A stretch of 64,000 nt of DNA from assembly GCA_036785375.1 (NCBI GenBank), contig JAWMAR010000199.1:4092001-4156000 (forward strand), given 5' to 3'. The stretch is from Leucoraja ocellata (taxonomy: Eukaryota). Below are positions 8,108-62,900 of this stretch, piece by piece. The notes under the pieces were generated by a model that saw nothing but the letters and a program-made list of their open reading frames with translations, made no database searches and was not told the origin of the DNA. Every line of letters starts with the position of its first letter. Position 1 is the first letter of the stretch. The position numbers and the translations under genes were made by a program.

Positions 8108-8754
8108 CCATTAAGAAAGGACAACAACGCCTATATTTCCTCAGACAGCTCAAAAAGTTCAGAGTCCATAAACACCTCCTGGTCCATTTCTATCAATCCA
8201 TCATTGAAAGCATCTTCACCTCCTCAATCACAGTCTGGTACAGAAACACTGACAGTCACTCACTACACAGAATACAGCGCATTGTCTCCAAGGCCTCCAG
8301 GATCATCAACTCCCCCCTCCCCTCAATCCATTCCATTTACCTCCAACGTACCTCAAAACGGGCAATAAAGATCATCTCGGACCCCTCCCATCCAGCAAAC
8401 CACCTTTTCCAGTCTCTCCCTTCAGGGAGGCGCCTCAGGTCACTTGCTACAAAATCCACCCACTTTAAAAACAGTTTCTTCCCCTCAGCAATAAGAACAC
8501 TCAATTCCCTCCAATAACAGACAATATTAAGGACTTCTGATGTATACAGTGTCTTGTCTATGGTCTTTGTCTGTTCTTTTGCACTATATATTGTTGATGA
8601 GATTTGTGATTTGTGTTGTGGTATGGATGAACTTTATTACTGTGATCTGTGTTGTTATTAGTGTTAATGTGACTAAAGCAGTGTACCATCATGTACCGAA
8701 CCCACATACCACCAACCCTGGTCGCCTGGCAAATAAACATTCTATTCTATTCTA
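8108..8754 (+). mobile_element. Rex1/Babar-type LINE, 5'-truncated, intact 3' ORF segment
   Basis: Uninterrupted IKKGQQRLYFLRQLKKF...FYQSIIESIFTSSITVWY...DPSHPANHLFQSLPSGRRLRS...FKNSFFPSAIRTLN to the stop at 8517, then 3' UTR, aataaac and an (attct)n tail. Confidence 0.88.
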
Positions 8755-11008: not shown

Positions 11009-11207
11009 GTAGAAACAAGGAACTGCAGATGCTGGTTTACTGAAAAGGACACAAAGTGTTGGAATAACTCAGCGGGTCAGGCAGAACATGGATAGGTGAC
11101 GTTTTGAGTTGTGATCTTCTGAGTCTGAAGAAGAGTCCCGACCCAAATGTAATTTATCTGTGGCTGCCTCACTCGCTGAATTACTCCAGCACTTTGTGTC
11201 ATTTTCA
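11009..11207. mobile_element. Penelope-derived inverted (fold-back) terminal-repeat insertion
   Basis: Minus and plus copies of the element lie back to back, with a degenerate CTGAAGA core. Flanking direct repeat gcaatgttatt at 10998-11008 and 11208-11218. Confidence 0.7.
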
Positions 11208-13375
11208 GCAATGTTATTCTTTGCTGGATTAGTTCTTATGCTGTTGCAGTGCCCAATGTCTAGACGCCATTACCATGACTGATTTGACTCCATTATAAAA
11301 ATGTCACATTACACTTGCAAATCAGCCTCAGTATGCTTATTGATGGTTGCAAGAAAAACATAATTTAAAGCAGCGTAACTTGCTGGTACGGAATAATTAG
11401 TGGAACCAGACTGTAAGATCTTAATTGTTAGAACAGGGGCATCGTTAGGTCAGTTGAAGGAAACTCCCTTTTACCTGGGAATTTATCTGATATTAGTGGC
11501 AATAATTGGCTTCCTCCCTTTATATTCTATTCTACATTATAGGAAATTACACACATAACAAAACAAGATGACAGCCTGAAAGCAGATGTGCTGTCTGCTA
11601 ATCTTTATTCAAAGTTGCTTAATCAAATCATCTGTGAATTTAAATTGAAGTTGCACAAACACATTTCTATTACTATTAATATCAGTTAAAGGTCTGAAAG
11701 TACTCATCTTATGCCAGCTGTTTCAGCACCACCAATGTTATGTTCCTCATGGAACAATGGAATCCATATATCCATGTCTGTGCCATGCTGTGTAGACTGA
11801 ACCACACAGTAGGGCAGGCACCAACACACCTGACCCCCCCCCCCCCACCTCTGGCTCCCAGTCTGGTCCTGGATCCACATGTACTAACGGCCCACATGCA
11901 CTTCAGATCTGGCCCCTCAGCAGAGTCAACATTGACTGCACAATGAGTCATCGGAGAAGGCAAAGGTTAAACTAACTTTCTCTTGTATTTATCTAATATT
12001 AAATTAATTTTCACCACATAGCGTTAATAATTAAATGTATTATTTTTTTCAATTTTTAATATTAATTATTCCTTTACCGGTCTTTAACTGCTCCTGTAAG
12101 TAGTGGCACTTGGTACCAGATGAAAAGCCTTTGGCAGTGCAGGCTGTCAGAAGGCCTTCAGGGTGGTGCCAGGTGGGTTCAGAATCCTCCGTCTGAGTCT
12201 CCTCTGCATCTCCATCTCCTCCTGGAACCGCTGCAGCAGTGGTTATGGGGGTTTACAGCTTACTGCTCCTTAAGGGAGAAGTCCAACATCAATGCTTGTA
12301 GCATATGCTGATCAACAGCATTTAGCATTTCAAACAAATACAATTTTAATTACAAAGGATATATGCACTATATAAATGCAATTTGTGCATCTTTCAGCTA
12401 TTTTCCATGTCATAGGAGCAGAATTAGGCCATTCAGCCCATCGAATCTACTCCGCCATTCAATCATGGCTGATCTATCTTCTCTCGACCCCATTCTCCTG
12501 TCTCCTCCCAATCTTGACACCCGTACTAATAAAGAACCCTTCCTTTTCAACAAGAGCTTTAACATCATATTTAACATATTTAGTATTCATGTAGATCAAT
12601 TTGAGGAAGGAACTGAGATGCTGGTTTTTCAGTTTGACTTTTGCTATTGTTGGATGTAACGATTCACAAAATAATTAGAATAGTTCTGTACTTGTTCACC
12701 CCACTTGATCTCATCCTTCAGACCAACTTCCCAAGTTAGAATCTAGCTACATCTTAGATGAATGTGGTGCCAGGCCTGCAGCCTATCCTGTTGACAAAAT
12801 TAATGCTTTGTACAATCTGTCTGGAGTCCTAATATTGAACTTGTCTCATCTGAACTGTGGCCCGGTACTTCTAAATAAATCTGCACGTATTCCTTTTATT
12901 CTTGTGTGATGTGCATCAAAAGACCTTTCTAGGCAGGTGGTTTCTCAGGAGCAGAGCTCACTCCCCTAAACACAAACAACCAGTCGTGTCTCATCCTCTG
13001 CTGACCCCTGGGGCTGTCAAACTGCATCATTTGTACTGATGAACTGGTCAACAGTGCTGGAACACTCACATTTATTCTTTGATGCAAGTTGACCTGTGAA
13101 GGAGGTGATTTATGAGGGAAGATTTGATAACCTGCACTGCGTAACCACATACCAGAAAGTACTTTACCATAAGATACATCCATGTGTAATTCAGCTTAAG
13201 ATCATTTCTCCTGAGATATTGTGGGGATAGTGGCTCTATACTCGCTATGGTTCTATGCAGGTTATGCCTGTGGCCCTGACCCGAACCCTAACCCTATGCA
13301 TGTGGTTGAGGAATCTATTGAAATATCTAAGATTGTGAGCAACAGTTTTGATGTAAATGGATCAAAAACTTGTCA

Positions 13376-13503
13376 GTGTCTGAAGAAGGGTCTCGACCCG
13401 AAACGTTGCCCATTTCCTTCGCTCCATAGATGCTGCCTCACTGAGTTTCTCCAGCATTTTGGTCTACCTTCGATTTTCCAGCATCTGCAGTTCCTTCTTA
13501 AAC
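13376..13503 (+). ncRNA. Penelope-type terminal repeat with intact minimal hammerhead ribozyme core
   Basis: CTGAAGA(13380)-a-GGGT-ctcg-ACCC-GAAAC-GTT, followed by the family tail ..ccagcatctgcagttccttcttaaac. Confidence 0.7.
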
Positions 13504-18653: not shown

Positions 18654-19340
18654 TTGCCCTCCACAGCATCCAACTTCATCATTCCCCAGCCCCACTCTTC
18701 ACACTTCCACCTCACTGAACTCATTTCCACATGCCTTGATTCCATCCCAGCCCCCATGTCTTGTTCAATAACTCTTCAATCTCCAGGCCTCCATTGCCAC
18801 ATCTTCACCATGGGCATCTTCACCATGGGCATCTTCACCGTGGGCATCTTCACCATGGGCATCTTCACCATGGGCATCTTCACCGTGAGCATCTTCACCG
18901 TGAGCATCTTCACCATGAGCATCTTCACCATGAGCATCTTCACCATGGGCATCTTCACCATGGGCATCTTCACCGTGGGCATCATCACCGTGAGCATCTT
19001 CACCGTGAGCATCTTCACCATGGGCATCTTCACCATGGGCATCTTCACCATGGGCATCATCACCGTGGACATCATCACCATGGGCATCATCACCGTGGAC
19101 ATCATCACCATGGGCATCTTCACCATGGGCATCCAGTCCTACTACACTTCTATTCCCCACCAGGAAGGTCTCAAGGTCCTCCAGGTCTTTCTCAATCAGG
19201 GACCCAACAGTTTCCCTCTACTAACACTCACCTCCACCTGGCGGAACTTGTCCTCACCCTCACCAACTTCTCTGAGTTAAAGGTGTAGCCATGGGTACTT
19301 CATGGGCCCCAGCTATGCCTGCCTTTATGTGGGTTACTAT
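18654..19340 (+). mobile_element. Penelope-like element reverse-transcriptase remnant
   Basis: LPSTASNFIIPQP..TELISTCLDSI..HIFTM[G/D]..IQSYYTSIPHQEGLKVL..PSTNTHLHLAELVLTLTNFS..KGVAMGT(x)MGPSYACLYVGY corresponds to PLE RT motifs. It carries deletions and frameshifts. Confidence 0.8.
18800..19129. repeat. 15-bp minisatellite (CATCTTCACCATGGG) x22
   Basis: Read directly: 330 bp with variants ccgtg/ccatg, ggg/gag/gga and ttc/atc. Confidence 0.97.
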
Positions 19341-23949: not shown

Positions 23950-24514
23950 GTGAGTTTCAGATACATCGGCTTCAAGAGCATTTGGGATTATCCCAGCTTG
24001 AATGATTTCCAATATGGAGATATCAGAGATTTCAAATCAGTTATAGTCATGAGCTGGGCATTCGGAATTCTGAACAGGATGCTTCTGTCTGCATCATCTC
24101 CATTACAACTGCGTGTGATATTTGGTTTATCCTGTCATAGTAACAGTAAATACATTACATCTGTGGGATACTGCAAGTTTGCACTAACACACATCTATAT
24201 CAGGTGTGCAGAACATTCATGTGTAGGAAGGAACTGCAGATGTTGGTTTACACTGAAGGTGGACACAAACTAAGTGTCTCAGGGCAACATCTCTGGAGAG
24301 AAGGAATGGGATGTGGAACACTAACATGATCCAGTTATCAGGTCTCAGTGTAACAAGCAACAAAGATAAACAGTATACGACGCTATCCCTGGACACGATC
24401 TTGCCATCCACACTGGAGGAGGTCTGTGACTGAGATATGCTTCCATAATCCCGACAAGTTTAGAACCATAGATGGAACAGAATATTCACATCCTGGTTCC
24501 TGGTTCTCCGTTGG

Positions 24515-24695
24515 CCTGGAGCGGGGACTGCGGGACTCGGAGCTGGGGCGGTGGGACCCGGAGCTGGGGCGGCGAGACCTGGAGCGGAGACTGCGGGACC
24601 CGGAGCGGAGACTGCGGGACCCGGAGCTGGGGCGGTGGGACCCGGAGCTGGGGCGGCGAGACCTGGAGCGGAGACTGCGGGACCCGGAGCTGGGG
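24515..24695. repeat. GC-rich 21-bp minisatellite with higher-order structure, inside a retroposon ending (ATTCTA)n at about 25050
   Basis: Units of the types GGGACCCGGAGCTGGGGCGG and GAGACCTGGAGCGGAGACTGC alternate. Downstream are AATAAA and an attcta tail. Confidence 0.8.
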
Positions 24696-26219
24696 CAGCT
24701 GCCTGGAGCTGATGCTGTGGCGGGCCGTCTCGGAGAGGAGACGGCGTTCTGGCTTTCAGCGGCGGTGACATCACCACGGAGGTCCGCTGGACTGGAGGAC
24801 GGCATCTCCGGCCTGGATCGATCGCCTCAGCGTAGAGGGAGAACAAGGAGGGAAGAGACGGAGACTAAAGACTTTGCCTCCATCACAGTGAGGATGTGCT
24901 TGGTGAACTCACTGTGGTGGATGTTTAATTTGTGTTTATTGTATGTTTTGTTTTTATTGGTTCTGTGTATGACTGCAGGCAACATAATTTTGTTCAGACC
25001 GAAAGGTCTAAATGACAATAAAGGATTCTAATTCTAATTCTAATTCTAATTCCTAATGTAAGTAGCCAACCAAGCACATTGGTTGCCAGGGATTCATCTT
25101 GTATCAGTAACTCCAGGGTCATTTACTTTATTCTTTGCCTGAGAAAGTGGCAAAAGTGAATGAAAACATTGTGAACTTTGGCAGCGGTCTTTGAGTTTAA
25201 AACCGTTTGGCACCATCAGCGTGGTTGTAAGAAATGGCGGGATTCAAAGAACCAGTGAACTTGTGAAGAAACGAGGTCCAGTTAAAACAAAGACAGGGGA
25301 TGCTGGTCTCCAGTTACATCCACTCTCCTCACACCCATCGAAACAACGGCTGGAAAACAAAATCCATCTCTAACCAGGATCTAAATTGGTGGGCATCGAT
25401 TGGACGACTGATCATTACAAACAGTGATTTTTGCTTCATTCATTTTCAGTAATGTTGAAACATCAACAGAATTTTACCTCCTGTGTTCACCACCTCAACC
25501 CCAGAGAACCACAACCGTACATTCACCACCTCAACCAACCTCACTGAACCACAATGGTCTTTGCACTCTTGTGGTTGCTCTACACAGCTAGGCTTTTACA
25601 CTATCATGGTCTAGTTTACTTAGAATGACTAATTGTTTATTATATATTTATTGTTCTTGTTTCCAACGTGCCTGTAACACTGCAGCAAGTAATATTGCCA
25701 TCATTCCGGTTCTTAACCGGTGCATATAACAAATGATGCATCCTTGACACACAAGTCTTGACATACTTTACTGTGATGCTGCAAGTATGTTTCCATTCCT
25801 TTCAGTGAGCTCGGCAGCAGAGTAACAGAACTATGAGAGCCCACTGCAGCTCAAGACCAAATTGACCAGAGTGATTGCTGGGACCATCCAAGCCCAGAGT
25901 CCAACATCACTCAGGAACATGTGTTCATTGGTTGAGTATCTGCTCCATTGTCCTGGTTCAAAAGATAAACATCTACATATGAGCTGCAGCAATATCTGGG
26001 GATAGTTGGAGGCAGGAGAAATGATGCATGAAGCCAGGCCGGCCGTTAGCACGTCATGTTTTGGACCGATGGGAAACATTAAGAAGCATCTTTTGTGCTG
26101 CTGGAATAAATGTGCTGGTGACTGCTATTGCACTCTGAAGAATTGGGCACAGCTCCGTCTAATGCTGAAGTGAGTGTACCCGGGAGGTTTTCTGACCAAG
26201 TCCACTTGTCTAAGTTTTA

Positions 26220-28451: not shown

Positions 28452-29408
28452 NNNNNNNNNNNNNNNNNNNNNNNNNNNNNNNNNNNNNNNNNNNNNNNNN
28501 NNNNNNNNNNNNNNNNNNNNNNNNNNNNNNNNNNNNNNNNNNNNNNNNNNNNNNNNNNNNNNNNNNNNNNNNNNNNNNNNNNNNNNNNNNNNNNNNNNNN
28601 NNNNNNNNNNNNNNNNNNNNNNNNNNNNNNNNNNNNNNNNNNNNNNNNNNNNNNNNNNNNNNNNNNNNNNNNNNNNNNNNNNNNNNNNNNNNNNNNNNNN
28701 NNNNNNNNNNNNNNNNNNNNNNNNNNNNNNNNNNNNNNNNNNNNNNNNNNNNNNNNNNNNNNNNNNNNNNNNNNNNNNNNNNNNNNNNNNNNNNNNNNNN
28801 NNNNNNNNNNNNNNNNNNNNNNNNNNNNNNNNNNNNNNNNNNNNNNNNNNNNNNNNNNNNNNNNNNNNNNNNNNNNNNNNNNNNNNNNNNNNNNNNNNNN
28901 NNNNNNNNNNNNNNNNNNNNNNNNNNNNNNNNNNNNNNNNNNNNNNNNNNNNNNNNNNNNNNNNNNNNNNNNNNNNNNNNNNNNNNNNNNNNNNNNNNNN
29001 NNNNNNNNNNNNNNNNNNNNNNNNNNNNNNNNNNNNNNNNNNNNNNNNNNNNNNNNNNNNNNNNNNNNNNNNNNNNNNNNNNNNNNNNNNNNNNNNNNNN
29101 NNNNNNNNNNNNNNNNNNNNNNNNNNNNNNNNNNNNNNNNNNNNNNNNNNNNNNNNNNNNNNNNNNNNNNNNNNNNNNNNNNNNNNNNNNNNNNNNNNNN
29201 NNNNNNNNNNNNNNNNNNNNNNNNNNNNNNNNNNNNNNNNNNNNNNNNNNNNNNNNNNNNNNNNNNNNNNNNNNNNNNNNNNNNNNNNNNNNNNNNNNNN
29301 NNNNNNNNNNNNNNNNNNNNNNNNNNNNNNNNNNNNNNNNNNNNNNNNNNNNNNNNNNNNNNNNNNNNNNNNNNNNNNNNNNNNNNNNNNNNNNNNNNNN
29401 NNNNNNNN
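28452..29408. other. Assembly gap (957 N)
   Basis: Run of Ns inside a sema6b intron. Confidence 0.99.
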
Positions 29409-32460: not shown

Positions 32461-32618
32461 AGTAGGAAAGAACTGCAGATGCCAGTTTAAATCAAAGGTG
32501 GACACAAAATGCTGGGGTAACTCTCTGGAGGACAGGCAGCATCTCTAGAGGACAGGCACCGTTCCTTCTCTCCAGAGATGCTGCCTGTCCCTCTGAGTTA
32601 CTCCAGCATTTTGTGTCG
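32461..32618. mobile_element. Fold-back Penelope terminal-repeat insertion with 13-bp TSD
   Basis: Inverted arms (gacacaaaatgctggggtaactc / gagttactccagcattttgtgtc). acccagtttgagg at 32448-32460 and 32619-32631. Confidence 0.8.
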
Positions 32619-32727
32619 ACCCAGTTTGAGGTGTCCTGTGAAGTGTGACGCGGTGTGTATTAAATAATTCCTGTTTATTTGTGCCCCAGCAACAGCACTG
32701 AAGTCATGAATCTGCTCTTTATTACAG

Positions 32728-34004: not shown

Positions 34005-34343
34005 CCAACAACAGGCGGTGAACATGGGATGACATGTAACAACATATGTGAACATGGGATGAACATGGAACAACAGGCTGTGAACATGGGGTGAACATGG
34101 AACAACAGGCGGTGAACATGGGATAACATGTAACAACATATGTGAACATGGGATAACATGTAACAACATCTGTGAACATGGGATTACATGGAACAACATA
34201 TGTGAACATGGAACAACAGGCTGTGAACATGGGATGAACATGGAACAACAGGCTATGAACATGGAACAACAAGCTGTGAACATGGGATGACATGTAACAA
34301 CATCTGTGAACATGGGATAACATGGAACAACAGGCTGTGAACA
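34005..34343. repeat. Compound minisatellite (21/30/32-bp units built on TGAACATGG...AACAAC)
   Basis: Read directly. Confidence 0.9.
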
Positions 34344-34784
34344 TTCCCGATGAATTCCACACTTGAGAAAGATTAGTCAGGCATTTTACAAGACTACATT
34401 TGAAGGCACTTCTTCAGAACCTGGTGTTTTGAATGAACTTGGGTGATATAGAGTTAAGAAAACCCTGCCAATGTTCAATGGGCTGAACACAATGTGCTGC
34501 TCCAGAGTGTCAGCTGTAAACCACAGAGGGAATTCTTGTGCTGAACACAGCATCCGGATTAGAATTCACTCAAATAATCGAAGCTTGACATATCTTTAAT
34601 GCTTTTCTTACACCACATTGAAACTCAGACTACAGGGGGAAACTGGCATGGACCTTGTCAAAACTGACGGCCTCATAGAGATCTCAGAAGGCAGCTGAAT
34701 GAAAATGAGTTTGCAGAGAAAGGCAATGTTAGCTTTGGAGAAAAAAAGGTTACGGAAGATGGACACACAGTATCACAGCAGGAA

Positions 34785-47879: not shown

Positions 47880-48070
47880 TATCTCTACCATAGAGAGTAT
47901 CTCCACCATGGAGAGTATCTCCACCATAGAGAGTATCTCCACCATGGAGAGTATCTCTACCATGGAGAGTATCTCTATCATGGAGAGTGTCTCCACCATG
48001 GAGAGTATCTCCACCATGGAGAGTATCTCCACCATGGAGAGTATCTATCATGTGGAGTACCTCTATCATG
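47880..48070. repeat. 18-bp minisatellite (TATCTCCACCATGGAGAG) x~10
   Basis: Read directly. Confidence 0.95.
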
Positions 48071-48601: not shown

Positions 48602-49044
48602 CCCGACCCAAAACGCCACCTATCCATGTTCTCCACAGATGCTGCCTGACCCGCTGAGTTACGCCAGCACTCTGTGAAACGTCACCTATCCATGTTCTCC
48701 ACAAATGCTGCCTGACCCGCTGAGTTACTCCAGCACTCTGTGAAACGTCAGCTATCCATGTTCTCCACAAATGCTGCCTGACCCGCTGAGTTACTCCAGC
48801 ACTCTGTGAAACGTCAGCTATCCATGTTCTCCACAGATGCTGCCTGACCCACTGAGTTACTCCAGCACTCTGTGAAACGTCACCTATCCATGTTCTCCAC
48901 AAATGCTGCCTGACCCGCTGAGTTACTCCAGCACTCTGTGAAACGTCAGCTATCCATGTTCTCCACAGATGCTGCCTGACCCGCTGAGTTACTCCAGTAT
49001 TTCGTGTCTTTTTGTAAACCAGTATCTGTAGTTCCTTGGTTCTA
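48602..49044 (+). repeat. 66-bp satellite array (6 units) of the Penelope terminal-repeat 3' half
   Basis: GAAACGTC recurs at 48676, 48742, 48808, 48874 and 48940. The last unit runs into the normal family tail. Confidence 0.92.
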
Positions 49045-50423
49045 ACGTTAAATCTGTTTCAGGTACGCATTTTGTAAATCCGCTGTAAAATGACATTAGG
49101 TGAATCTTAGGTATTGATGGATCACGTGAGATTAACGATTTTATAAATTCCAATTATCATTCTTCAGGCACCACAGGCAACCGTGAGTGGAATTTTTCCC
49201 CAATTGAAAAATCTCCCTTTTTTTTAAAACACATTATTCATTCCTTTGAAATTTCCAGAGAGCAGAAGTGGTTAATGTATTTACAATTGTGGAGCATCAG
49301 TTGGGAATACATCTGACTGTTTGAGTTAGTCTTCCCATTACCAACAGTCAGACCCACTGGTTTGATCAAAGGATTCTCACTGCTTTGAGAATCAGGTGAA
49401 CCTCTAATTAAATACATTGAGTTGATGACTAACACTGGCAGTAGCTGTCATGGTGTGCACAATGGCCGAACAAGAGATGAATAACTGGAGCATAGAATGG
49501 GAGTGTTCATTCGACCATGTATAAACCTAGCAGTTTAGGGTTCTATGTACCAGGCTGTATCTTAACTCCAAATTATTGTATTGTGCAAAGATCCAAGTGG
49601 CTTTCCCCAAAAGGCTGTCCCAGACTCTTGTGAAACAGATACACACTGGCTCTTTTCTAAATATGGTGTTCTCTTTCTGAAATGTGAATTTAAAATGCTT
49701 ATAAAGGTCCTACATAATAAAAAAAAATCTGATATTGTAGCTGTCCTTTACTTTGTTTGCTGTTCTGATGTTATAGCAAAAGAACAACATTGTGTTGGGG
49801 CATTTCATCATGGCCATGTGTGATATTCTGGAGCACATAACAAATAGCTATGAAATCTTGTACAAGTGAAACACAACACCATCAAACCCAAGCTGTTTTC
49901 TTCGACAGTCCGTGTTTTGCTTAATGTGTGGGGAATATATGTGGGATTTTCAACACTTTATTATGAGTTGTTGTGTCTCATCGCCAGAGATGTCTGCAGT
50001 AAGTGGCAGGGTGAGTTGAATACTCTGCATTATTTCTGATGAATGTTATATCAGTGCACAGTAAGTGGAGATTGAATGCCAACGTGGATTTAACATAGAT
50101 CTTTCAAAACACCTACCAGAATTAAAAATCTGTCCATAGTTCACAGCGAAAATTCCCTTTGTGTAGCCACTATTTGAAACACTGTCAGGTTTTGGTATTA
50201 GCGGGTAGTTTAAAGGTGGCATTACATTGGTGATTTTATGGGTGTTCTGGGAACTACACGAGTCGGTTCTGTTTTTCTCAATATTCGTTGCTGGAAAAGT
50301 ACTTTGTGGAAACTTATTCCACAGTTTAGGGAGAAACGTTTGGAAAAGAAACTCTCAACCATTTTGTCAAATATATTTTTGTAACAAGTCACTACACAAA
50401 AAGATGTGCCTTTTTATAATGTT

Positions 50424-50557
50424 TAAGGAGGAACTGTAGATGCTGGAAAATCAAAGGTAGACAAAAATGCTGGAGAAACTCAGCCAGTGAGGCAGCATCT
50501 ATGGAGCTCCACAGATGCTGCCTCACCCGCTGAGTTTCTCCAGCATATTCGTCTGCC
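50424..50557. mobile_element. Palindromic Penelope terminal-repeat insertion with 17-bp TSD
   Basis: Arms of about 45 bp meet at ggagctcc. tgcctttttataatgtt at 50407-50423 and 50558-50574. Confidence 0.82.
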
Positions 50558-51124
50558 TGCCTTTTTATAATGTTCTTCTAGATGCATAATTCACTGATAA
50601 TTGATTATAAACACCAATAATGGATGCTATTCCTTTATATGCTATTGACAGGTAACCTATTGACATGAAAAGCTTCATATCAGGGGACGTATTTGGATTC
50701 CTGTGATCTATTCTGATGCCCGTTTTTGTGGTCGAGTGAACGACACTGAAACCGGAGGCCATGAATATTCAGGAGAGAATTCAGGAGAAACTATTTAAAC
50801 TAAAGAATGGTTGGGATATGGAATTCACCACGACCAGAAGGGGAATAACACATTTTATAGAGGGATAGATAAAGACACAAAGGAGACAGGATAGTGGGAT
50901 TGGAATGAGCTGAAGTACAGGAAGCATTAGTTGACAAATTGTCTTTGTGCTGCGAGTTCTATGTAGTTGTATTTAAAATACATAAATTGCCAGCCACTCT
51001 TCCTGCCACAACAGATTAATTTGTGCTGCTAAAAATGCGGATCAGAGTCTCCATTATGTGGTTTTAGTCTGACACTTAGCAAGCTGTGTCAAAAAATTGC
51101 AACACAAATAAGCAATGGATAATG

Positions 51125-51920
51125 GAGGCACAAGAGACTGTAGATACTGCAAACACAAGACTAGATACTGGAGACACAAGACTAGATACTGGAGACACAA
51201 GACCAGATACTGAAGACACAAGACTAGATACTGGAGACACAAGACTAGATACTGGAGACACAAAACTAGATACTGGAGACACAAGACTAGATACTGGAGA
51301 CACAAGACTGTAGATACTGGAGACACAAGACTAGATACTGGAGACACAAGACTAGATACTGGAGAAACAAGACTAGATACTGGAGACACAAGACTAGATA
51401 CTGGAGACACAAGACTAGATACTGGAGACACAAGACTAGATACTGGAGAAACAAGACTAGACACTGGAGACACAAGACTAGATACTGGAGACACAAGACT
51501 AGATACTGGAGACACAAGACTAGATACTGGAGACACAAGACTAGATACTGGAGACACAAGACTAGATACTGGAGACACAAGACTAGATACTGGAGACACA
51601 AAACTAGATACTGGAGACACAAGACTAGATACTGGAGACACAAGACTAGACACTGGAGACACAAGACTGTAGATACTGGAGGCACAAGACTAGATACTAG
51701 AGACACAAGACTAGATACTGGAGACACAAGACTAGATACTAGAGACACAAGACTAGACACTGGAGACACAAGACTAGACACTGAAGACACAAGACTAGAT
51801 ACTGGAGACACAAGACTAGATACTGGAGACACAAGACTAGACACTGGAGACACAAGACTAGATACTAGAGACACAAGACTAGATACTGGAGACACAAGAC
51901 TAGATACTGGAGACACAAGA
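51125..51920. repeat. 21-bp minisatellite (GACACAAGACTAGATACTGGA) x~37
   Basis: Read directly. Occasional 23-bp variants (gactgtagat). Confidence 0.97.
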
Positions 51921-52436
51921 AAGCTTCTGGAGGAACTTAGTGGGTCATGCAGTATCTGTGAAAATAAATGGATAGTCAACAATTTGTGTCAAAAGCCTAC
52001 ATCTTGACTTCATCTAGACCTTTCATCCAGATATAGGGTCTCAATCTGAAATGTTGATCTTTCATTTCCCTCCACAGATGTTGACTGAACTGCTGAGTTC
52101 CTGAGTAGCTCTCCTTCTTTGCAACCAATGATAAACATTGGGACCAGTGAGTGAGACTCTCCCACATGGCTCAGTACACCAGGTTGGGTTTGATTCTCTA
52201 TATTGTACTGGAATAATGAAAATGAGAATTGGACCAATGTAAGCATATGCTCTGTAAGTAACAGTCACACCAAGGCTGACTGATCACGGAATAGTCTCAT
52301 TCAATTCCTGCATATTGCTACACTAACCCATCAAATAGCTCACTTTAACATAACCTTTTACTCACTATAATCCAACGTCATTATTGGTGCCTCATTGCTT
52401 GTACAGTAATTACCCACATCATCCTAGCAATTACAC

Positions 52437-52725
52437 AAAGTGGTGCAGCAGTCGAGTTTCTGCCTTACAGTGCAAGAGACTGGGGTTTGATCCTGACTCC
52501 ATCTGCTGTCTCTGTGGAGTTTGAACCTTCTCCCTGTAACTGTGTGGGTTTTCTCTGGGTGCTCTGGGGCGGGTTTGTAGGCTAATTGGGCTAATTGGTG
52601 GTTAAATTCCTCTAGTGTGTTGGATGTGAACCTGGGATAATGTAGAATTAGTGTAAACGGGTGATCATTGGTCAGCATGGACTCAGTGGGCCGAAGGGCC
52701 TGTTTCCTTTCTGTATCTCTAAACA
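52437..52725 (+). mobile_element. HE1-like V-SINE
   Basis: Degenerate A/B boxes, body and CR1-like tail. Other copies at about 22135-22290(-), 30135-30545(-), 38950-39115(-) and 54000-54300(+). Confidence 0.75.
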
Positions 52726-53507
52726 AAGTGTTTATGTCTCAAATTCCACTAATTAGACAGCACATTTAATTTACAATCCCGCTGAATGTACTTGATTATA
52801 ACTGTGATCTCCTGCACACTTTAATACCGCTAATTGTGTAAAAAATGTTTCATCTGAGTGATAGTGCCTCAGGCTGTAGTGGGCTTTAAATGAAGGTAAG
52901 TGAAATTTGATTGTAAACAAAGAATGCCAGTGACATGTGATTAAGTGCCCTGTGACTTTTTCTCACAGAGAGTTGTGAGTCTGTTTTCCCTTAAGAATTT
53001 TGTAAGTTTCTATAAGATCCCCCTCAATCTTCTAAATTCTAGCGAGTACAAGCCGAGTCTATCTAGTCTTTCTTCATATGAAAGCCCTGACATCCCAGGC
53101 TGGTTAACCTTCTCTGTACTCCCTCTATGGCAAGAATGTCTTTGGCAAGGGAGATGGAGAGGGCGGTGGAGGCCGGTTATCTGGATGCTTTCAAGAGAGA
53201 GCTAGATAGGGCTCTTAAAGATAGCGTAGTCAGGGGATATGGGGACAAGGCAGGCACGGGTTATTGATTGGGGACGATCAGCCATGAACACAACGAAGGG
53301 CCGAATGGCCTCCTCCAGCACTTATTTTCTATGTCTACATTTTGTCCTGTTGGGCCTAATCTTTTGGCATTATATCACCAAGGGTTCTAAAAATGGAGGT
53401 GCAATTAACACAAAAGTATTTCTAAAGTTAAATACAAGAAAAGCCAACGTGTGGTTGGTGTGGGCAGGATGTAAGTTGTGTACCATGTTGATGTGGTACC
53501 ATTACTG

Positions 53508-53516
53508 CAGAGAGAC

Positions 53517-53561
<45 letters not shown>

Positions 53562-53581
53562 GAGAGAGGGAGAGAGAGAGG
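53508..53581. repeat. (GA)n microsatellite
   Basis: Read directly. Confidence 0.95.
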
Positions 53582-53885
53582 GATATCCTGGACGGCAAAC
53601 AGGCCCATGTTGATGGTGACCATTGACAAATACCAAAGTCCCAGTGGACATCTCAGTCAGGGACCATTTTCACATGATGACAGGAACTCCACTGCCGCGA
53701 TGTGCAATTACGGAGTAACCACAAACTGTGCATGAATGCTCATGCAACTGGCATCCTACCATCCACATTTGTCTTGTAGGCCCAGCTACCTTTGAATTAC
53801 TTTTGTGGATGCTATGGTTCACAGCCAGGTTGTGCCACCCTGTTGAACATCAAACCAACTGTGATCTCAGACCACATTCACCTGT

Positions 53886-53958
53886 CTTGGTACTCCAGGA
53901 GGCCTTGGTACTCCAGGAGGCCTTGGTACTCCAGGAGGCCTTGGTACTCCAGGAGGCC
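53886..53958. repeat. 18-bp tandem repeat (CTTGGTACTCCAGGAGGC) x4
   Basis: Read directly. Confidence 0.93.
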
Positions 53959-54489
53959 TGCAGTATTGGCCGAGTGAGTATCTCGATCTGTTGCTTGCTG
54001 GCAGCCCAGGGGCCCAGCTGGTAGAGCCACTACCTCACAGCACAAGAGACCCAGGTTCAATCCTGACTTCTGCTATTGGCTGCGTGGAGTGCACCAGTTT
54101 GGTTCTTTTGACCATGTGGGTGACCTCCATGTAAACCCATTTCCACCCACATCTCAAAATCAGGCTTTTGTGAAGTTGAATTTAATTAATTGGCCATTGC
54201 AAATTGCTCCCTGTGTGTTGAAGGCATTAACAGAATGAGGAGTATAAATGGAATTGGTTTAAATGCGTGGCTAATGGTCAGTGTGGACTCATTAGATGAA
54301 GGACTCAACCTTCCTTGATTCTACCAGACCAGACTAAGAGAACAGTCCTTGCTACCAACTAACCAACACGAGCAAGATGTAGAAGGAGCAAGTAAGTCTA
54401 CAATGTGGACGTCTCCTTCTGCCTGGAGTCTACATCATCAAACAACTCTGGAGAGACCATAGTAATGGTAGCATCAACTGCAAGTACAA

Positions 54490-54760
54490 GTAGACACAAA
54501 ATGCTGGAGTAACTCAGCGGCTGAGGCAGCATTTCAGGAGAGAATGAATAGGTGACGGTTCAGGTCGAGACCTTTCTTCAGATTGATCAGGGGCGGGGTA
54601 GGGACAAAGAGAATGTAGGCGGAGACAATAAGACTGGAGGGAGGACTGTGAAGGGGAGGGGATGGAGAGAGAAAGCACCTTGTATTTCACTTGTGTAGTT
54701 TACACCCCAGCAGTATGAACATTGACTTCTCTAACCAGATAGCCCTTGTTTTGTCTCTCA
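54490..54760. mobile_element. Penelope fragment with inversion: minus-strand terminal repeat/3' UTR joined to a plus-strand GIY-YIG tail
   Basis: Minus hammerhead-like core at about 54555-54582. The plus strand encodes HLVFHLCSLHPSSMNIDFSN at about 54676-54735. Confidence 0.72.
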
Positions 54761-56446
54761 GCAACCACATGTTGATCAACAGTAGCATGGATCATCAACA
54801 GTAGCATGGATCATCAACAGTTGTATCATCAACAGGTATCTGAGACTGAGAAATATGATCCTGTACCTTAATATCCCTAATGCTACTAACAAATACCACC
54901 TTCCCATCTTGCAGTGCCTATATTTCATCAATCTATATTATTGATCACTGAGTTGATTGTTTATTTATAATGTGCTAATGATGTGCGTGTGCCACTAATG
55001 TATGTGTGTGTCACTGTCACTAAAATATCTGGTCCAGATAATGTCCACATCACTATGTACACTCTGGAACGTTAAGCTGGGAAATAAAGCATTGTATTGC
55101 ACAGAGGCATTGGTCTGCTGTTCATGCAGAACGTATTATATCATGAACAAGAAGATAACGTTCTGTATCAATAGCCCACTAGTCACAGATATAGTTGCCC
55201 TCACACAGTGGGTCAGACCGAGAGATCATTTCATCTTAGTGATGGTGCTGAAAGGCAGAGGGAACCTCATTGTGAGGTTAAATAGAACACGGTTATAACT
55301 GACCTTGGGGGCATGACAGAGTGGATGTGGGAGTACCTGCAGCAAGCCAAGGGGTCACTCATTCACTTACGACAGATGAGGTGATTGTTGTTCCCCCAGA
55401 AGGCTGTGAGTCTTGGGATTCACCTCCTTAAAGAGGCAGATAAGATCAGGGTAAGAATTGTAGAGCTACAGTTGTAATCACATCAGCCATGACTTTATGG
55501 GAGTGGGTAAACGGCTACATTTGCTCCTAATTGACATGTTCATATGTTTAGATTTGTCTTCATTAAGCAGTTGCTGGGACATGGATGGAGTTCATTGCTC
55601 GGGAATAGAGTTCAGGGCAGGATCTGATTACAACAGAAAACTAAAACACTGCTAGAAAATTGGGAGCAAAATCAGAAGGGTTGATAGTGTGGACTTCTAG
55701 TTTCTGATTGCTGTGTATGAATAATGGTGAGATTGGACTGGCCTCACACAGAAACCTGCTTCATGATGGAGGTAATCAGATCATTGGCACAGTGTCAGTG
55801 TCAGTGTGTACATGAGAAGAGAAATAGTTCACCACAACTCTACTGACATAGTGGATTGACAGCACAGACTAAACTGCTATCACCTACATTGCCAAAGGGT
55901 GAATCATTTTGAAAGAGTAAAGCTTCAATTTATCTGCTCTTTGTAATCCAGCGTTCAGGTAATTATCTTTAGAAGAGTATTCAATTCCGTTTCCTTGCTG
56001 ATGTTTCACATCGGTGAGGTGCTTGCAACCATTGGTGAGAATACTTAAACAGACATGGGCAATCACACAAGGCTGGGAGGGGTGATTGGGAGAAGCCATG
56101 GTAATTATTTCCTTGCTTCATTTGAGAAGCTGTACATGTGCAAGTTTTAGATCATGTAGAGAATGAAAGCTGACGTGCAATATTTGGACTTGGCATCTGT
56201 CACAACAACTGTTCTCACTGCAACGTTTAAGCAACACTGGCACCTTGAATGCTTCAGGCAGCAGATAGTAATTACTGTTGCACTGCCCAGACTAATATTC
56301 CACTTCAGTACACAGGGAAAGTTTTACAATGAGTTTGAAAGCTCTCGCAGGTGTGCAATAATGTTCTTCATAACACGTCAATGATTTCATATCAATGCTG
56401 TATACTGAGCAACATTGGCAGGGATGGCGTCGAGAATTCCTTCCCC

Positions 56447-56963
56447 GTTCCTTCTCCCCACAGATGCTGCCTGACCCACTGAGTTACTCCAGCACTCTGT
56501 GAAACGTCACCTATCCATGTTCTCCACAGATGCTGCCTGACCCGCTGAGTTACTCCAGCACTCTGTGAAACGTCACCTATCCATGTTCTCCACAGATGCT
56601 GCCTGACCCGCTGAGTTACTCCAGCACTCTGTGAAACGTCACCTATCCATGTTCTCCACAGATGCTGCCTGACCCACTGATTTACTCCAGCACTCTGTGA
56701 AACGTCACCTATCCATGTTCTCCACAGATGCTGCCTGACCCGCTGAGTTACTCCAGCACTCTGTGAAACGTCACCTATCCATGTTCTCCACAGATGCTGC
56801 CTGACCCGCTGAGTTACTCCAGCACTCTGTGAAACGTCACCTATCCATGTTCTCCACAGATGCTGCCTGACCCACTGAGTTACTCCAGCACTCTGTGAAA
56901 CGTCACCTATCCATGTTCTCCACAGATGCTGCCTGACCCACTGAGTTACTCCAGCATTTTGTG
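56447..56963 (+). repeat. Second 66-bp satellite array (~7.7 units), same unit as 48602-49044
   Basis: GAAACGTC at 56501, 56567, 56633, 56699, 56765, 56831 and 56897. Confidence 0.93.
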
Positions 56964-59900
56964 AGAACCCTGATTCAGTACAGTGGCCTCATCAATAGAT
57001 TTGTGACATCCTTCATTACCTCACCTTAGTATCAGCTGGACCGTTAATATTACCAATGGGCAGACATTGAAAGCAAATGGAGGGAAAGGGAAAGGTTTCA
57101 TTTTATATGGCACCTTTCATGACCTGTCAACGTACTAGATAACTAGAACCTAATAGGTAAAGCTGTTTCTCCAACAGGAAATGTATATCTACTCCTCTCC
57201 AATTATTCCCATGGGATTTTTCATCCTCCAAAAGGATGGCCAGGAACTCAGCTACAGAAACCTCAGAAACATCAATTTCAATTTGTCAACGTGCGTTCTG
57301 TTTCCATCCTAAGAAGAGCCGAAGGGCCGAATGGCCTACTCCTGCACCTAATTTCTATGTTCTATGTTTCTATGAAAATCTCCAGCTGTTATAAAAAATA
57401 GCAACACATATCTTGCATTGTCTGCTTTTATCCCAGTTGACAATATAATGACGCAAGGCCGTTCACCTCTGTTGGCACTGAATGGGTGATGTGTACATTT
57501 AAGATAAGTAACAGGAGCATGTGCCAGTATGAATCTGCACTCAGTATAGACTATTCTAAAGGACAACATTGGGCAGGGAAATCAGTCGTGGTTATAATTG
57601 ATATGAAAAATTGATTTCTTGACATGAAGTTAGCAACCAAAGTTATATTTGGAAACGTCTCATCCTATCGTGCTGGATCCCACTCAAGTAACATCAGGAA
57701 GAATAGTTAACCTATAATTTCCTGTTTCTGTCAGGTTTCTGGGCACCCCTTCCCTTCCAAAAGGAAAACAGCAGCAACTACATTTCAAACAAACAATCCC
57801 CCAACTACTTGCCCCAATTAAATTGATGTCATCAATTACTTTCCTATTATTAGTTGAATAAATCATCTACTTGTGAATAACTTAAATCTACAATTTCATC
57901 CCACAGTACCTGGTATTATCCATCTTTAGAATTATGTCACACACCTTGCTCTGCTTCTCCCTTCATGTACTACACAACTCTAGTGTAGATGGGACATGTT
58001 GGTCAGTGTGGGCAAGTTGGGCCGAAGGGCCTGTTTCCATGCTGTATCACTCGATGACTCTAAGACCACCCCCAGAAACTCACTGGATTTCCTTGCATTT
58101 TACAAATGTTCTTCCTTCTAGCAGTCTACAGACAGTTCCAGCCCAGGCTTGGTGCTTTTCTTTAACTCTCCTTGCTGCTACTTTCAGGCATTGCTGGCAC
58201 CTTGCACTATTGATCTTGAAGATTGCAATGGCCCAAGTCTTGTGTGGACTGTCTTCATGGCAGCACTTGCCCAGCTCAGCAAACCTGGCCCTAACCTGCT
58301 GTGAATTTCCCTCGCAGAAAACAAGTTGTTGCAGGAACTCAATAGGTCAGGCAGCATTTGTGGAAGCAGAGAGATGTTGACATTCAGGTCCTGCTGCTGT
58401 ATCACACCCAAACACATCAACCATCCTTCTCCCTCCATAGATCTGCCTGACTCTCTGAGTTCCTCCAGCACCGTGGTTTTGTTTCCAGTTTACAGCATCT
58501 GCAATATCTTGTGCCTCAATGTCTTCAGCAAAGTTGCCAATTACTTTATTGTCTGGGATTCTTCCAAGTATAAATGGTAAGCCCTGCTTTTACACAAATC
58601 CATTGACAGCTGGCAAAGCCATGCCACAAAACTTAAAGGCTGTGGATCATTTCTGTTATATTCCTTCTTGATTAAACTTGCTGTCCATCTGATGTCCAGT
58701 TGAGTTTGCATACATCATGCATCCTGCAAGCTTGATCGATTATTGACAATAATGGCACATTGACTCAACAATTATCTTCATCATATCGATACTCACAAAG
58801 TCCCAGAAACCATTAAAAAGTTAAACTATTGCAATTTGTAATTCTAAAGGAATTAAACAGTTAAAACAGTAGAAAATATTATACTAGAAATAAATGTAGT
58901 AAAATTAAATAAATTATTTTCTTTGTCAAAGGTCACAGATTCTTAGTCTGGGAACGTTCTTTGGACTACTAAACCAACGCTAATACGTAAACCTCCTTCT
59001 ACCCACCTTCTCCCTTCCAGGCTTCCCCCCCAGCACAATGAATGAGCTCCCTGTACCTGTCAACCTTCGTACCCCACAGCACAATCCAACCACCAGGAAA
59101 TCGCCAGCAATCAGCTGTGTATTTACACGGAGGTCACAACCATCCATGTTGTGCTGGAGATTCTGTTGTCATTATTAGTGAAACGCTGCCAATTGTACAA
59201 GTTCCAACGTACTCTAAATAAGTGAGAGAGAAAAACAGACTGTTGGAGGAACTCAATGCAGGAAGTCAATAGAAGGAAGGCAGTAGACAGCCAATGGTTA
59301 CAATCTTCCCTTAGTCATGACCCAAAACATTATCTGTCCACTTCCTTCCACAGATGCTGCCCAACACATTGAGTTCTTCCAGCAACTCAGCATCTACAGT
59401 CTCTTCTGTCTCCATGTTCTAAATACAGCTCAGAGATTCACACAGGTCTTCCATGTAGAAGGATGGATAAAAAACTATTGCAATCTTGCTTTTTAAAATG
59501 TCGACAGGCAGGGTAAATGTTAATCAACTTGATCTGTTACAGTGCTTCCCACACAACAAGCCGCCAGCTAAAGGCACGAGAATGACCCTAGAGGCATCGA
59601 CCCTAGAGGCATCGTCCCTAGAGGCACTTGGCTGCACCAACGCATCTCTGTGTATCCCTGTTGAAGGCATGTTTTACTGAGGCTTGCTGGGAGTGTGGTC
59701 TCATGCTGCAACAAACAGGACAACTTGGCTCCTCAACCAAGATTTAAGAATTAAAAAATAATCAAAGGATTGAAAAGCAAATTGTTAGAATGGGAGGTTT
59801 TAGAGAAATAAAGGAGAAAAAAATGAAAATAGTGCAAGTAAAGAGATAGAAAGTGAAATTAAACAAAGATAACATTTTTAACACGTTATTAAAATCTCCA

Positions 59901-62900
59901 AAACCAATTTGTTCCACATCTTCACACCTTTAATTACTCACTTTGCAGGCAAGAAAAGTTGATTGGAGGTCATTAACAATTACCATACCATTAAAAGGAT
60001 ACTTACTTTATTAACGACCAGATTTAACTTTCTGCGGATGGGTTTAATGGGCCATGGATGGACAAGAGCTGCAACTTTGTGAAAACTTTGACATAATTTT
60101 AATCAAACTAACCATGGAGGTGTGCAAACTTTTCCTAAAATTATAATGATTTATAACTCAAAGAGATAATCTCCCATTGCTGGCCAACAAACATATTAAT
60201 AACAGTCTGCATTGGTTCTTTTTGGATAATTCTGGCCAAGTGCCAACACTAAATCCTTTCATAAAAGACTCACATTTATGCTGCTCCTTTCATGTGTTTC
60301 ACAGACAATTTCTGAGCTGGGTAGTGGATTTTCACAAATAGGGAGAAGATATCTGAAGGAGTGGCCCTATTTGGATCAGGGGCCACGGGAGAAGATGTGG
60401 ACATTTTTAGAGGTGTAAAAAGATGAGAGATATCAGACTGAAGGAGATTTCAGACATTAAAAGAGTAAAGAAATGAAAGTGAAGGTTTGCCGTGATTCTA
60501 GTTTCATGGATGTTTGGTATTGATTGGTCGTTCCAGCAGATGTTGGAATATTTTTATCCTATCTGATGCAGGAGCCTGAGATACTCAACAATGGATGGTA
60601 TACATACGGAACTTTCTTTTCTCTCTTGTTTATCATATTGTTTACAGTTTACTATGTTTACATATCGTGTTGTGCTGTAGCAAGTAAGAATGTCATTGCT
60701 CTATCTGGGACACTTGACAATAAAACACTCTTGACTGTTGATCCTCTTCTGATATCTATACACAAGCACCTGAAACACCTGACGGCTTCTCTCCCCATAG
60801 GCACTGCCTGACCTGCTCGGTGTTTATAGTTTTTTATTTCAAATTCCTAACATTTTAATTTTGATTTGTAACTTAGTCCTGTTGTGAAGTTGGAAAGGTT
60901 GCACATTGGATGATTTACGTCTACCAGCCTATGTCTCATCAGTATTCCTAATGTTAGACAACAAGAAACACAGGGAAACTTGGACTTAACTTTAAGATAA
61001 TTACCCCAGTCCCCAGATTGTGTTTGTATAATGTTTTTAGGGAAATATCTGAGGTGTTTCACAAGAACATTATCGAATGGCATTTGTTACCATGCTGCTT
61101 AGTAAATACAAGGACACATAGATGTCTAAGTAATCTGGTCAAAAAGGTAAATGTTAATTAGCTTCACAGGAGGAGATCGAGGTTGAGAGAAGGAGAGAGT
61201 TGATCCTCATCTGAGGAGGTAGAATGAATCAGATCGTAACAGGAGGATTGTTCTTGCATCATTCAACAAGAAAAACACTTCCATCTTTGTCATCCGTGAG
61301 CACATCTGTTGTTAGTGCTGAATGAGGAAACGTTGACTACTTGCATCACCTCATCTTCCCAGCTACAACAGATGAATAAAGATCGTTTAATAGCCACTTC
61401 CTTTAGGCTTCACTAAACAGATGGTTTTGCTTAATGCTATTGCAGTTAGGTGCAACGTTTATTCATCCCTGCAATTACAGCTGTATTTGCTATATTGCTG
61501 CATAAATATATTGTAATTTTCAGACTATATTTCATACTGGATATAAAATACTAGAACTTGGTTTCTTTAGTCACCTTTGTAAAATGCTTCAATTCCGATG
61601 CACAATCACAGTTTCTCATGCAATTTATCTAAAGTATTTGGCGATACCTGTGGAGGAGAAAGACTAATCTTTCTCATTCCACTTGATCTACTGACCATAG
61701 AATCAGAAGCTCCCAATAAACCACGGGCAGCCAGGCTGGCTCCATGCAAAGCTGGGAGATTCCCAAATACATTTGAAAGTAACAGAGGGCTTCCAAACAG
61801 CAGAGTCTTACAAGCTGAGATCAAACGCCTCATGGAGCAGTGGGAATGAGGAATGAGCAAGTGGACATGTACAGTGTTTCCATGGAATTGTAAAGCCACA
61901 CAGAGATAGGGCAGAGCACGACAAGAATGTTTAAACTTAGATCACGAACATTAGAAAGAAAGAAACGGGAAGAGGAAGAGAGGAATGAAGACAAGGTGCC
62001 AACTTTGAGGAGCATCTACTGGTTGTCCACCATCTTCACTCTCTGTCCTTCTGCTCTTTGTCTTCAACCTCCCACAATGCTCCAACTGGAAGACACCCCA
62101 ATGTCGGTCATCATGGGTCCACTGGCAGTGGCAGGGTGACAAATGCCAAATGTGAGCCCAGCTCTTCACCACTGACCCACCTGATTAACAGACAAAGACG
62201 CAAAGCACTGGAGCAACTCAACAGGTAAGCAGTATCTTTGGAGAACATGGGTAGGTGATGTCTCAGGTCAGGAACCTTCTTCAGACTGATCTGTTTAACC
62301 ATACAGCCTCTACAGAGCTGGGCTTGAACATTGCTCATTGCTAGGGGAAAGTTATCACAGTTTATTATTATCCAAAAAATGAAATCTGTAGCAAACAGTG
62401 AGTTCTATAGAAAATGTCAGGAAGCCATGAACAGCTTGGTGGCAGAAAGAAAATGTTATTTACTAAAAATAAGATTATGTTAATATATTCTGGAAGGAAA
62501 AACAGGGAAAATGTTGAAATATATCATAGTGATACAGTGTGGAAACAGACCCTTCTGCCCAACTTGCCCACACAGACCAACATGTCCCATCTATACAATT
62601 CCCACCTGCCTGCGTTTGGCTCCATGGAATCATTTCCGTAACATATAGACCATAAAAATAACCATGAGTGCTTTAACTGAGACTGGAGAACAAGAACAAA
62701 CTTATCACAACTTTGTTTAAAGCTCTGGTTTTATCCAAAGTTCATTTTTGAATATATTTCTGAATCCTCATTACAGAAAGAAAGAAAAACAGAAAGTAAG
62801 ATAATAAGAACATCTTATCGGTATTTTACAGGAAGGTTGCAAAGCACCTCGTCTAATGAACTGAAGTGAATCCTTTGTTAGTTAGCAAGCAACTTATGCA

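Follow-up and report, generated by a model that had tools for sequence, protein, structure and literature searches.

Two short minisatellite arrays, built of one 66-bp unit and joined at one identical junction, were characterized in a 64,000-nucleotide (nt) stretch of the genome of Leucoraja ocellata (GCA_036785375.1, contig JAWMAR010000199.1, positions 4,092,001 to 4,156,000 of the forward strand). The whole stretch is referred to as the window, and its coordinates are used throughout. The unit matched part of a short dispersed repeat that carries a minimal hammerhead ribozyme and is probably of the Penelope-like element (PLE) type. The arrays belong to a widespread and apparently undescribed minisatellite family that derives from this repeat and goes back to one founding junction. 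The explanation favoured here, with confidence and doubt about balanced, is one founding duplication followed by homology-guided spread into existing copies of the repeat and by local turnover of the units. The arrays are most likely passengers, in which the leftover half-hammerhead does nothing.

Anatomy of the arrays and their shared junction

Array A (48602–49045) and array B (56443–56963) lay about 7.4 kb apart in the same orientation. A period of 66 was reported for both by Tandem Repeats Finder (TRF), at 48611–48997 (5.9 copies, 96% matches) and at 56458–56964 (7.7 copies, 98% matches). The junction 20-mer occurred 12 times in the window, five times in array A and seven times in array B, and every occurrence was exact. 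A 13th was not found in the window with up to three mismatches tolerated; shuffled sequences predicted 0.02 occurrences. The initial annotation, made from the letters alone, had described two 66-bp arrays with a near-identical unit and an identical junction, and both the period and the 12 exact junctions agreed with it. The unit register was counted from the G of GAAAC, and the two loci were composed as follows.

48602..48609, plus strand: 3' strand of hammerhead stem II, the head of the 5'-truncated parent copy in which array A lies (alignment to intact copies from 5–6 nt before GAAAC)
48610..48675, plus strand: A1, first unit, with three private letters (positions 1, 7 and 54) and GCC in place of GTC (alignment)
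48676..48939, plus strand: A2–A5, inner 66-bp units, 1–2 letters off the majority sequence, with two variants in common that are rare genome-wide (alignment, read depth)
48940..49005, plus strand: A6, last unit, array-type up to 48997 and host-type from 48998 (alignment, read comparison)
49006..49045, plus strand: 3' tail of the parent element of array A; of the 48 letters at 48998–49045, 5 are private, and this stretch occurs as a single copy in relatives
56443..56458, plus strand: head of array B, derived from another parent subfamily (of its 16 letters, 8 are identical to the unit and 10–13 to 11 of 12 dispersed copies)
56459..56500, plus strand: remainder of B0, array-type, closing with the first junction of array B (alignment)
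56490..56509, plus strand: one of the 12 identical junctions, with the G of GAAAC at 56501 and the predicted cut after 56508 (type I hammerhead anatomy, PMC4209133)
56501..56896, plus strand: B1–B6, inner 66-bp units, 0–2 letters off the majority sequence (TRF, alignment)
56525..56567, plus strand: predicted RNA hairpin, present in every unit and closed by junction letters, weaker in parent copies (prediction)
56897..56963, plus strand: B7, last unit, closing in the common dispersed-copy form CATTTTGTG without a tail (alignment)

The initial annotation had located the arrays correctly, but the stretches 48602–48609, 49006–49045 and 56443–56458, which it counted as array, were ends of parent copies. 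The first unit, A1, is probably mostly host-derived as well. The inner units were nearly uniform, with 1, 2, 2, and 1 letters off the 66-letter majority sequence in A2–A5 and 0, 0, 2, 0, 0, and 1 in B1–B6, respectively. Mean distances per 66 nt were 1.83 between units of the two arrays, 1.67 within array A and 0.87 within array B.

The unit extended from the GAAAC of the hammerhead to just short of the common short 3' end of the dispersed repeat. It retained GAAAC, the ACGT palindrome and GTC, and had lost CTGAAGA and stem II; no CTGA.GA site was present within arrays A and B. This content had been described correctly apart from the first unit of array A, which has GCC. The right side of the junction was the foot of stem II, and the left side was the end of TTTGTG, 2–15 nt before the first cluster of 3' ends among the dispersed copies. 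In all 12 junctions, a C replaced T four letters before GAAAC, and this marker letter points to a single founding event for the junction. The junction lay 8 nt upstream of the predicted hammerhead cut and is therefore not a cleavage-ligation scar. An origin by cleavage and ligation was ruled out by this position, and the initial annotation's suggestion of an origin close to the ribozyme cut was not supported at this distance.

On the minus strand, the arrays are spanned by open frames of 170 and 198 amino acids. These were considered as coding candidates and rejected, as they arose from a stop-free 22-codon unit. The array frames gave DUF1932 and MerR_1 scores, of which, for array B, one was above and one about at the cut-off; no single stretch passed alone, and the scores were read as summed repeats. 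The flank letters AGAAC after array B (window 56958–56968) could lengthen the unit hairpin. They resemble GAGAA to the left of array B (56432–56436), perhaps by chance, as a decayed target-site duplication or as a fold-back.

The dispersed parent repeat

Apart from arrays A and B, 29 dispersed copies of the parent repeat were found in the window (31 merged intervals minus the two arrays). The alignment set comprised 23 of them; those at 31156, 51915, 52035, 58330, 58414, and 59347 were left out as tail-only or more distant. A full copy consisted of CTGAAGA, a bulged A, a short stem II, GAAAC, GTC or GTT, a body of about 58 nt, and an optional tail. Two copies illustrate the full-length form and a truncated form.

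13372..13503, plus strand: example of a full-length parent copy, with CTGAAGA, stem II, GAAAC, body and tail (alignment)
11010..11104, minus strand: dispersed copy of the unit's subfamily, 5'-truncated at AAAC, the place of the right side of the junction (read by eye)

The sequence common to the 23 copies reached no farther than 26 nt upstream of GAAAC, to the hammerhead. The minimal type I hammerhead, with a bulged base before stem II and a palindromic stem III, was recognized by eye in the copies at 13378, 19928, and 63577 and in others. In the window, Rfam returned no match at gathering score, for tRNA or any other family, and no hammerhead family at E ≤ 10; the 14 weak Rfam matches were hairpin look-alikes. 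The 3' ends fell into two clusters, with 13 of the 23 copies ending within 15 nt after TTTGTG, none at 16–29 nt and 10 at 35–47 nt, offsets that are possibly 2 nt too high (the anchor lay 2 nt early in three references). Truncation at the foot of stem II (AAAC) arose independently in one of the 23 copies (end 11104; by eye).

At least three subfamilies of the parent repeat were distinguished by eye. The unit belonged to the subfamily with the ATCCATGTTC body, which was also seen at 11010–11104 and 62194–62291. Nearest-neighbour divergence was 5.0–13.6% in 11 of 12 dispersed copies, compared with 0–3% in the arrays. Three inverted pairs of parent copies were present, at 11010–11205, 32463–32621, and 50421–50566. 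These pairs were head-to-head, gave spurious miRNA-like Rfam matches, and in two cases joined at a nearly equal place, about 21 nt after GAAAC; an opposite-strand joint was also seen in 209 RNA reads.

The terminal repeats of PLEs, or pseudo-long terminal repeats (pLTRs), contain a minimal type I hammerhead with a bulged base and a palindromic stem III (PMC4209133), and PLEs show an optional tail of 30–40 bp, frequent 5' truncation, adjacent inverted copies, and partial tandems (PMC8557442). In an anole PLE, the tail is located between two reverse-transcription start sites (PMC11167929). The dispersed repeat shared with such pLTR fragments the minimal hammerhead and its bulged base, the palindrome of stem III, truncated 5' ends, a tail in some copies, and inverted pairs (PMC4209133; PMC11167929; PMC8557442), and the tandem unit aligned to it. 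A PLE open reading frame (ORF), with reverse transcriptase plus GIY-YIG, was not present among the 18 of 39 window ORFs scanned, and the PLE label thus rests on the hammerhead, tail, truncation, and inverted-copy traits. By these sequence traits, the parent repeat is probably a short, non-autonomous hammerhead-plus-tail element of the PLE type.

The fragments at 24221–24310, 32557–32621, and 56443–56458 started a few letters from the predicted cut, like retroposed 3' cleavage products. Between arrays A and B, a second minisatellite from the parent repeat family was found at 51141–51975, with a 21-bp unit and 37 copies (TRF). It was an expansion in the 3' tail of a more distant family member on the minus strand, whose body was at 51915–51975, and a few 23-bp units in it looked ancestral.

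Abundance of the junction and routes of spread

The junction was not confined to the window. Fourteen DNA-type runs, from six organisms and six studies, contained 0.85–0.90 of 20 words taken from array B and from its margins, not every one of which spans the junction; three of these runs were contig sets of only 15–26 million letters. Six metatranscriptome RNA contig sets with 0.25–0.50 of the words were not used. Four of 23 runs (three DNA and one RNA) were compared with the stretch 48912–49300, which contains one junction, A6, the tail and unique flank. In the DNA runs, from related organisms A, B, and C, flank depth was about 23.5, 28.4, and 45.2, respectively, and the flank differed by 2–5 letters per 139–314 nt. 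Because the flank was covered with so few letter changes, the three organisms are close relatives with the orthologous site.

At the marker C (48936), summed contig depth reached 171,000–188,000 times single copy. Divided by 31 overlapping words, the depth was 5,500–6,100 at 48936 and 3,300–5,300 at 48942; summed contig depth is not a copy number, neither position is strictly junction-specific, and the values suggest, as a rough figure, junction copies in the thousands. The RNA run was an oligo-dT library from related organism A, of which about 5% was examined. Among 12.9 million reads, 1,646 showed the 66-nt tandem (128 per million; 219 starts in the main row), with 660 and 974 in the two orientations. 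The marker C was present in 3,184 reads of this run and the flank in 0–6. Other tandem joints, of 35, 36, 37, and 63 nt, were found in 0–3 RNA reads each and at contig depths of 17–734, rare beside the 66-nt joint, so tandem joints arise repeatedly in the family and one of them spread far more. Known PLE partial tandems repeat the element to truncation points that vary, whereas in this family a single 66-bp junction, always the same, far outgrew the other tandem joints. The junction 20-mer and a family-wide degenerate pattern gave no match in viral, metagenome, and prokaryote contigs or in phage records, collections without host DNA that say nothing either way.

These data indicate, indirectly, that the junction had reached many loci before several related species split. 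A duplication or conversion between the two neighbouring loci only, or an assembly artefact, would agree with their spacing of 7.4 kb, their common orientation and the explicit 66-nt back-step joint in contigs, whose depth was only 959, 559, and 26. That low depth is presumably due to contigs of a high-copy repeat being too short to show the joint. The word content of the six organisms, the summed depth of the marker letter and the raw RNA reads, in which the tandem stood hundreds of times above flank depth, all contradict a local origin, and the units are not one collapsed read because they carry distinct variants. As the whole story, local origin is effectively refuted and scarcely credible. 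Presence beyond the two loci, on which the initial annotation had staked its claim, was found by a wide margin. A description of the 66-bp family was not found in the literature searched (most subscription journals lay outside it, and Repbase and Dfam were not searched) or in the available part of an elasmobranch genome preprint (10.1101/2025.06.08.657570).

The ends of the arrays differed from their interiors. Array A was flanked by half of stem II (48602–48609) and by a full tail (to 49045), and its end contained five letters that most reads do not carry (48998, 49003, 49023, 49029, and 49039), or 5 in 48 compared with 1–2 in 66 inside. This tail was at single-copy depth in the orthologous contigs, with at most one of the five private letters changed. 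The contigs of related organisms A and B (records 6 and 16) covered it from 48984 and 48987 at depths of 23.5 and 28.4, with two letter differences apiece in 192 and 314 nt, and related organism C (record 24) shared it from 49009. The tail of array A thus belongs to this locus only, predates the split of these species, and is not the tail of a shared master. With units treated as independent, the contrast between tail and interior gave P 0.005; the age contrast is real but modest.

In array B, the first 16 letters matched the unit at 8 positions and 11 of 12 dispersed copies at 10–13 positions, and the array closed in the commonest form of the dispersed copies. Young arrays inside older repeats are thus clear for array B and suggested for array A, two loci in all. 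A convincing target-site duplication was not found at either array (best 4–5 nt). The interior of array A also carried rare variants. G at unit position 10 was present in three of its six units and in only 1.4–2.2% of contig depth and 4.7% of RNA reads, and A at unit position 29, in three units, was absent from the differences listed at 5% or more. Since its units share variants that are rare genome-wide, array A was turned over in place.

A sequence of four steps would account for these features. First, in one copy with the ATCCATGTTC body, the TTTGTG end would have been fused to GAAAC, so that a 66-bp stretch lacking the catalytic half was duplicated in tandem. The anatomy of this step was observed directly; its mechanism may have been a reverse-transcriptase jump, in which the enzyme stalled where stem II begins to fold and resumed close to the first 3' end, or slippage of DNA with 1 nt (G) of microhomology. 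Second, the founding junction would have come to many loci before the related species split, as the run comparisons indirectly indicate. Third, a dispersed parent copy of any subfamily may have paired through the shared 36–60 nt or so and gained several units from another array. This would start with a break in the dispersed copy that is repaired on an array elsewhere, by interlocus conversion with out-of-register strand annealing, or with a small DNA circle that recombines in; the ends of the old parent copy would remain as array flanks. Fourth, the units turn over locally, as the shared rare variants of array A showed.

Homology-guided landing is favoured because the ends of both arrays looked older than their interiors or different in kind from them, and a DNA donor suffices for such landing. 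In an alignment-based reading, the letters of array A can be explained by five units gained cleanly between host positions 55 and 58, which agrees with the first-plus-last-unit pattern of re-integrated circles described for Rsp-like arrays (PMC7403614).

Several points weigh against homology-guided spread. The tail contrast of array A weakened to P 0.026 with one unit against the tail, 0.15 with A1 pooled with the tail and 0.28 by distinct sites. Arrays A and B both closed in CATTTT-type letters, as expected of one master with a fixed last unit; the T at 49000 is the majority letter in reads, so the CATTTT-type ending is also the majority form. Only two loci were readable end to end, and neither an empty orthologous site nor a DNA circle was seen. 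A shared stretch of 36–60 nt is short for homologous recombination. The ends of the unit lie close to landmarks of PLE reverse transcription and its hairpin has been kept, features that favour an RNA route.

Ordinary retroposition, in which a hammerhead-(66)n-tail master would move as a non-autonomous PLE subfamily and be 5'-truncated on insertion, with later conversion between arrays and with array B formed by template switch or conversion, is considered unlikely but deserves weight. Array A has the predicted shape, with half of stem II, six units and a full tail of one subfamily. Frequent 5' truncation, tails, and partial tandems are features of PLEs (PMC8557442), and the two arrays close in the same letters. 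However, the tail haplotype of array A was single-copy and farther from the read majority than the interior, the head of array B belonged to another subfamily and calls for an extra event, and interlocus conversion would still be required.

A similarly low probability is given to RNA-templated homing, in which array transcripts, as linear multimers or circles of a multiple of 66 nt, would be copied by the PLE reverse transcriptase into parent copies nicked by the PLE endonuclease. The 66-nt unit might then, though this is doubtful, be a minimal satellite RNA of the PLE that dropped the catalytic half, kept the hairpin and the reverse-transcription start site, and homes into old copies. Thousands of dead remnants would on that improbable account become arrays of a retrotransposon parasite without a ribozyme of its own. 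The anole PLE possibly nicks the pLTR of its own kind, and its insertion does not depend on cleavage by the ribozyme (PMC11167929). The end of the unit 2–15 nt before the first 3'-end cluster, in a repeat with 13 short and 10 full-tailed copies among 23, resembles the two-start pattern of that element (PMC11167929). The transcription of the tandem units and the single dispersed copy truncated at AAAC also agree with this route. The predicted hairpin of the unit was the most stable of 15 stretches (−14.4 kcal/mol, compared with −6.3 to −12.4 kcal/mol in 12 dispersed copies), but equally low z-scores were obtained for three of the 12 dispersed copies, and one of five consensus pairs showed a two-sided change, in one sequence, with no real covariation. 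The predicted fold of a 66-nt circle was modest (−10.7 kcal/mol, z −2.2 to −2.7); the cut register tied with eight others, and a special status for it was not upheld. The junction away from the cut, the tandem reads in both orientations, the absence of a read-end pile-up, and the absence of a PLE ORF among those scanned argue further against RNA homing. The traces expected of an RNA donor and of a DNA donor are nearly alike. The claim of the initial annotation that the multimer itself spread thus stands as to a single origin followed by spread, on the many-locus evidence, whereas its passage through RNA was not shown by the evidence.

Elsewhere in the window, which is rich in tandem expansions, other minisatellites of 15–30 bp were reported by TRF at 18800–19133, 24515–24696, 34007–34344, and 47880–48046. 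An assembly gap of 957 N was present at 28452–29408. Fragments with an RNase H-like domain of reverse transcriptase (1730–2371, minus strand) and with an ALKBH8_N domain (8014–8514, plus strand) are probably pieces of decayed retroelements.

Remnants of the hammerhead and known systems

The arrays might serve as trans or cis cleavage substrates, or as dimer partners, of intact hammerheads, a function that is compatible with the other explanations and is considered highly improbable. Each unit keeps the palindrome and GTC, which a dimeric minimal hammerhead needs of its partner (PMC4209133), and in constrained predictions, the unit hairpin closes the loop between two palindromes. The models gave only 5–6 intermolecular pairs, however, and the hammerhead-shaped duplex of an intact head with a junction piece was less favourable than the separate strands, by 4.5 and 6.2 kcal/mol for two heads. 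A cis hammerhead with a later unit carried a penalty of 11.7–16.1 kcal/mol, and activation of a hammerhead by the next unit was not favoured for this reason. In the natural trimer, ACGU was unpaired at 3–13% (87–97% paired elsewhere). The proposal of trans-cleavage substrates in the initial annotation was not sustained by these energies. Read ends did not pile up at the cut or elsewhere on the stretch, in one fragmented oligo-dT run that is a weak test and ill suited to circles. Minimal hammerheads cut weakly even as dimers (PMC4209133), and eight of nine Xenopus dimers did not cut (bioRxiv 10.64898/2026.07.22.740005). In favour of a cleavage role, the hammerhead of the anole PLE depends on protein for cutting (PMC11167929), and energies of naked RNA may therefore mislead; none of six parent heads was predicted to fold as a full hammerhead at minimum energy either.

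The initial annotation had also likened the arrays to retrozymes. Non-LTR retrozymes and the hammerhead satellites of newt and axolotl are likewise pLTR-derived tandems of PLEs that are transcribed and form dispersed short arrays (PMC7229834; bioRxiv 10.64898/2026.07.22.740005), and non-LTR retrozymes with a mean unit of 363 bp are reported from one chondrichthyan (bioRxiv 10.64898/2026.07.22.740005). Each of their units, however, contains a complete type I hammerhead, and the monomers are cut and circularized, whereas here the catalytic half was absent and the junction lay off the cut. The arrays had no CTGA.GA, stem II was gone and Rfam found no hammerhead, and identity with a non-LTR retrozyme was rejected, as the defining feature of a complete hammerhead in each unit was missing. 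The initial annotation was right on the spread and probably wrong on the part of the ribozyme.

The closest known systems were the satellites derived from short interspersed nuclear elements (SINEs) in squamates, above all sSat3SRP of snakes (PMC10702118). The snake satellite is a 67-nt piece of a SINE with arrays at up to thousands of loci that retain parent ends (PMC10702118). In both cases, the tandem unit (67 nt in the snakes, 66 bp here) is an internal piece of a short, abundant retroelement, one unit was found at many loci and in several species (the loci here being inferred from words and depth), and the arrays were short, with terminal units that run into parent ends; array A had both ends and array B short ones. 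The parent here was of the hammerhead-bearing PLE type and not a tRNA-derived SINE, the unit identity was 97–100% compared with 82–94%, and one array had the ends of another subfamily. The snake study offers unequal recombination and concerted evolution, and the route to many loci was not tested in the available part of it (PMC10702118).

A young array inside older, abundant repeats with one junction at many loci is also known from the Rsp-like satellite in 1.688 clusters of Drosophila simulans and mauritiana, for which conversion or DNA circles were proposed (PMC7403614). Those unrelated satellites meet at 4–7 nt of microhomology, whereas donor and target here were homologous over 36–60 nt and the target was a dispersed retroelement remnant.

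Surveys of retrozymes that are based on ribozymes miss this abundant PLE-derived tandem family; the 2026 retrozyme pipeline requires complete motifs and would not list it (bioRxiv 10.64898/2026.07.22.740005). With the 66-bp family, the question of how a single satellite unit comes to occupy thousands of separate loci becomes testable, because its parent subfamilies are distinguishable, the array ends record the copy in which the units landed, and relatives with orthologous flanks have been sequenced. If the RNA route were true, the unit would represent a new kind of minimal retro-parasite.

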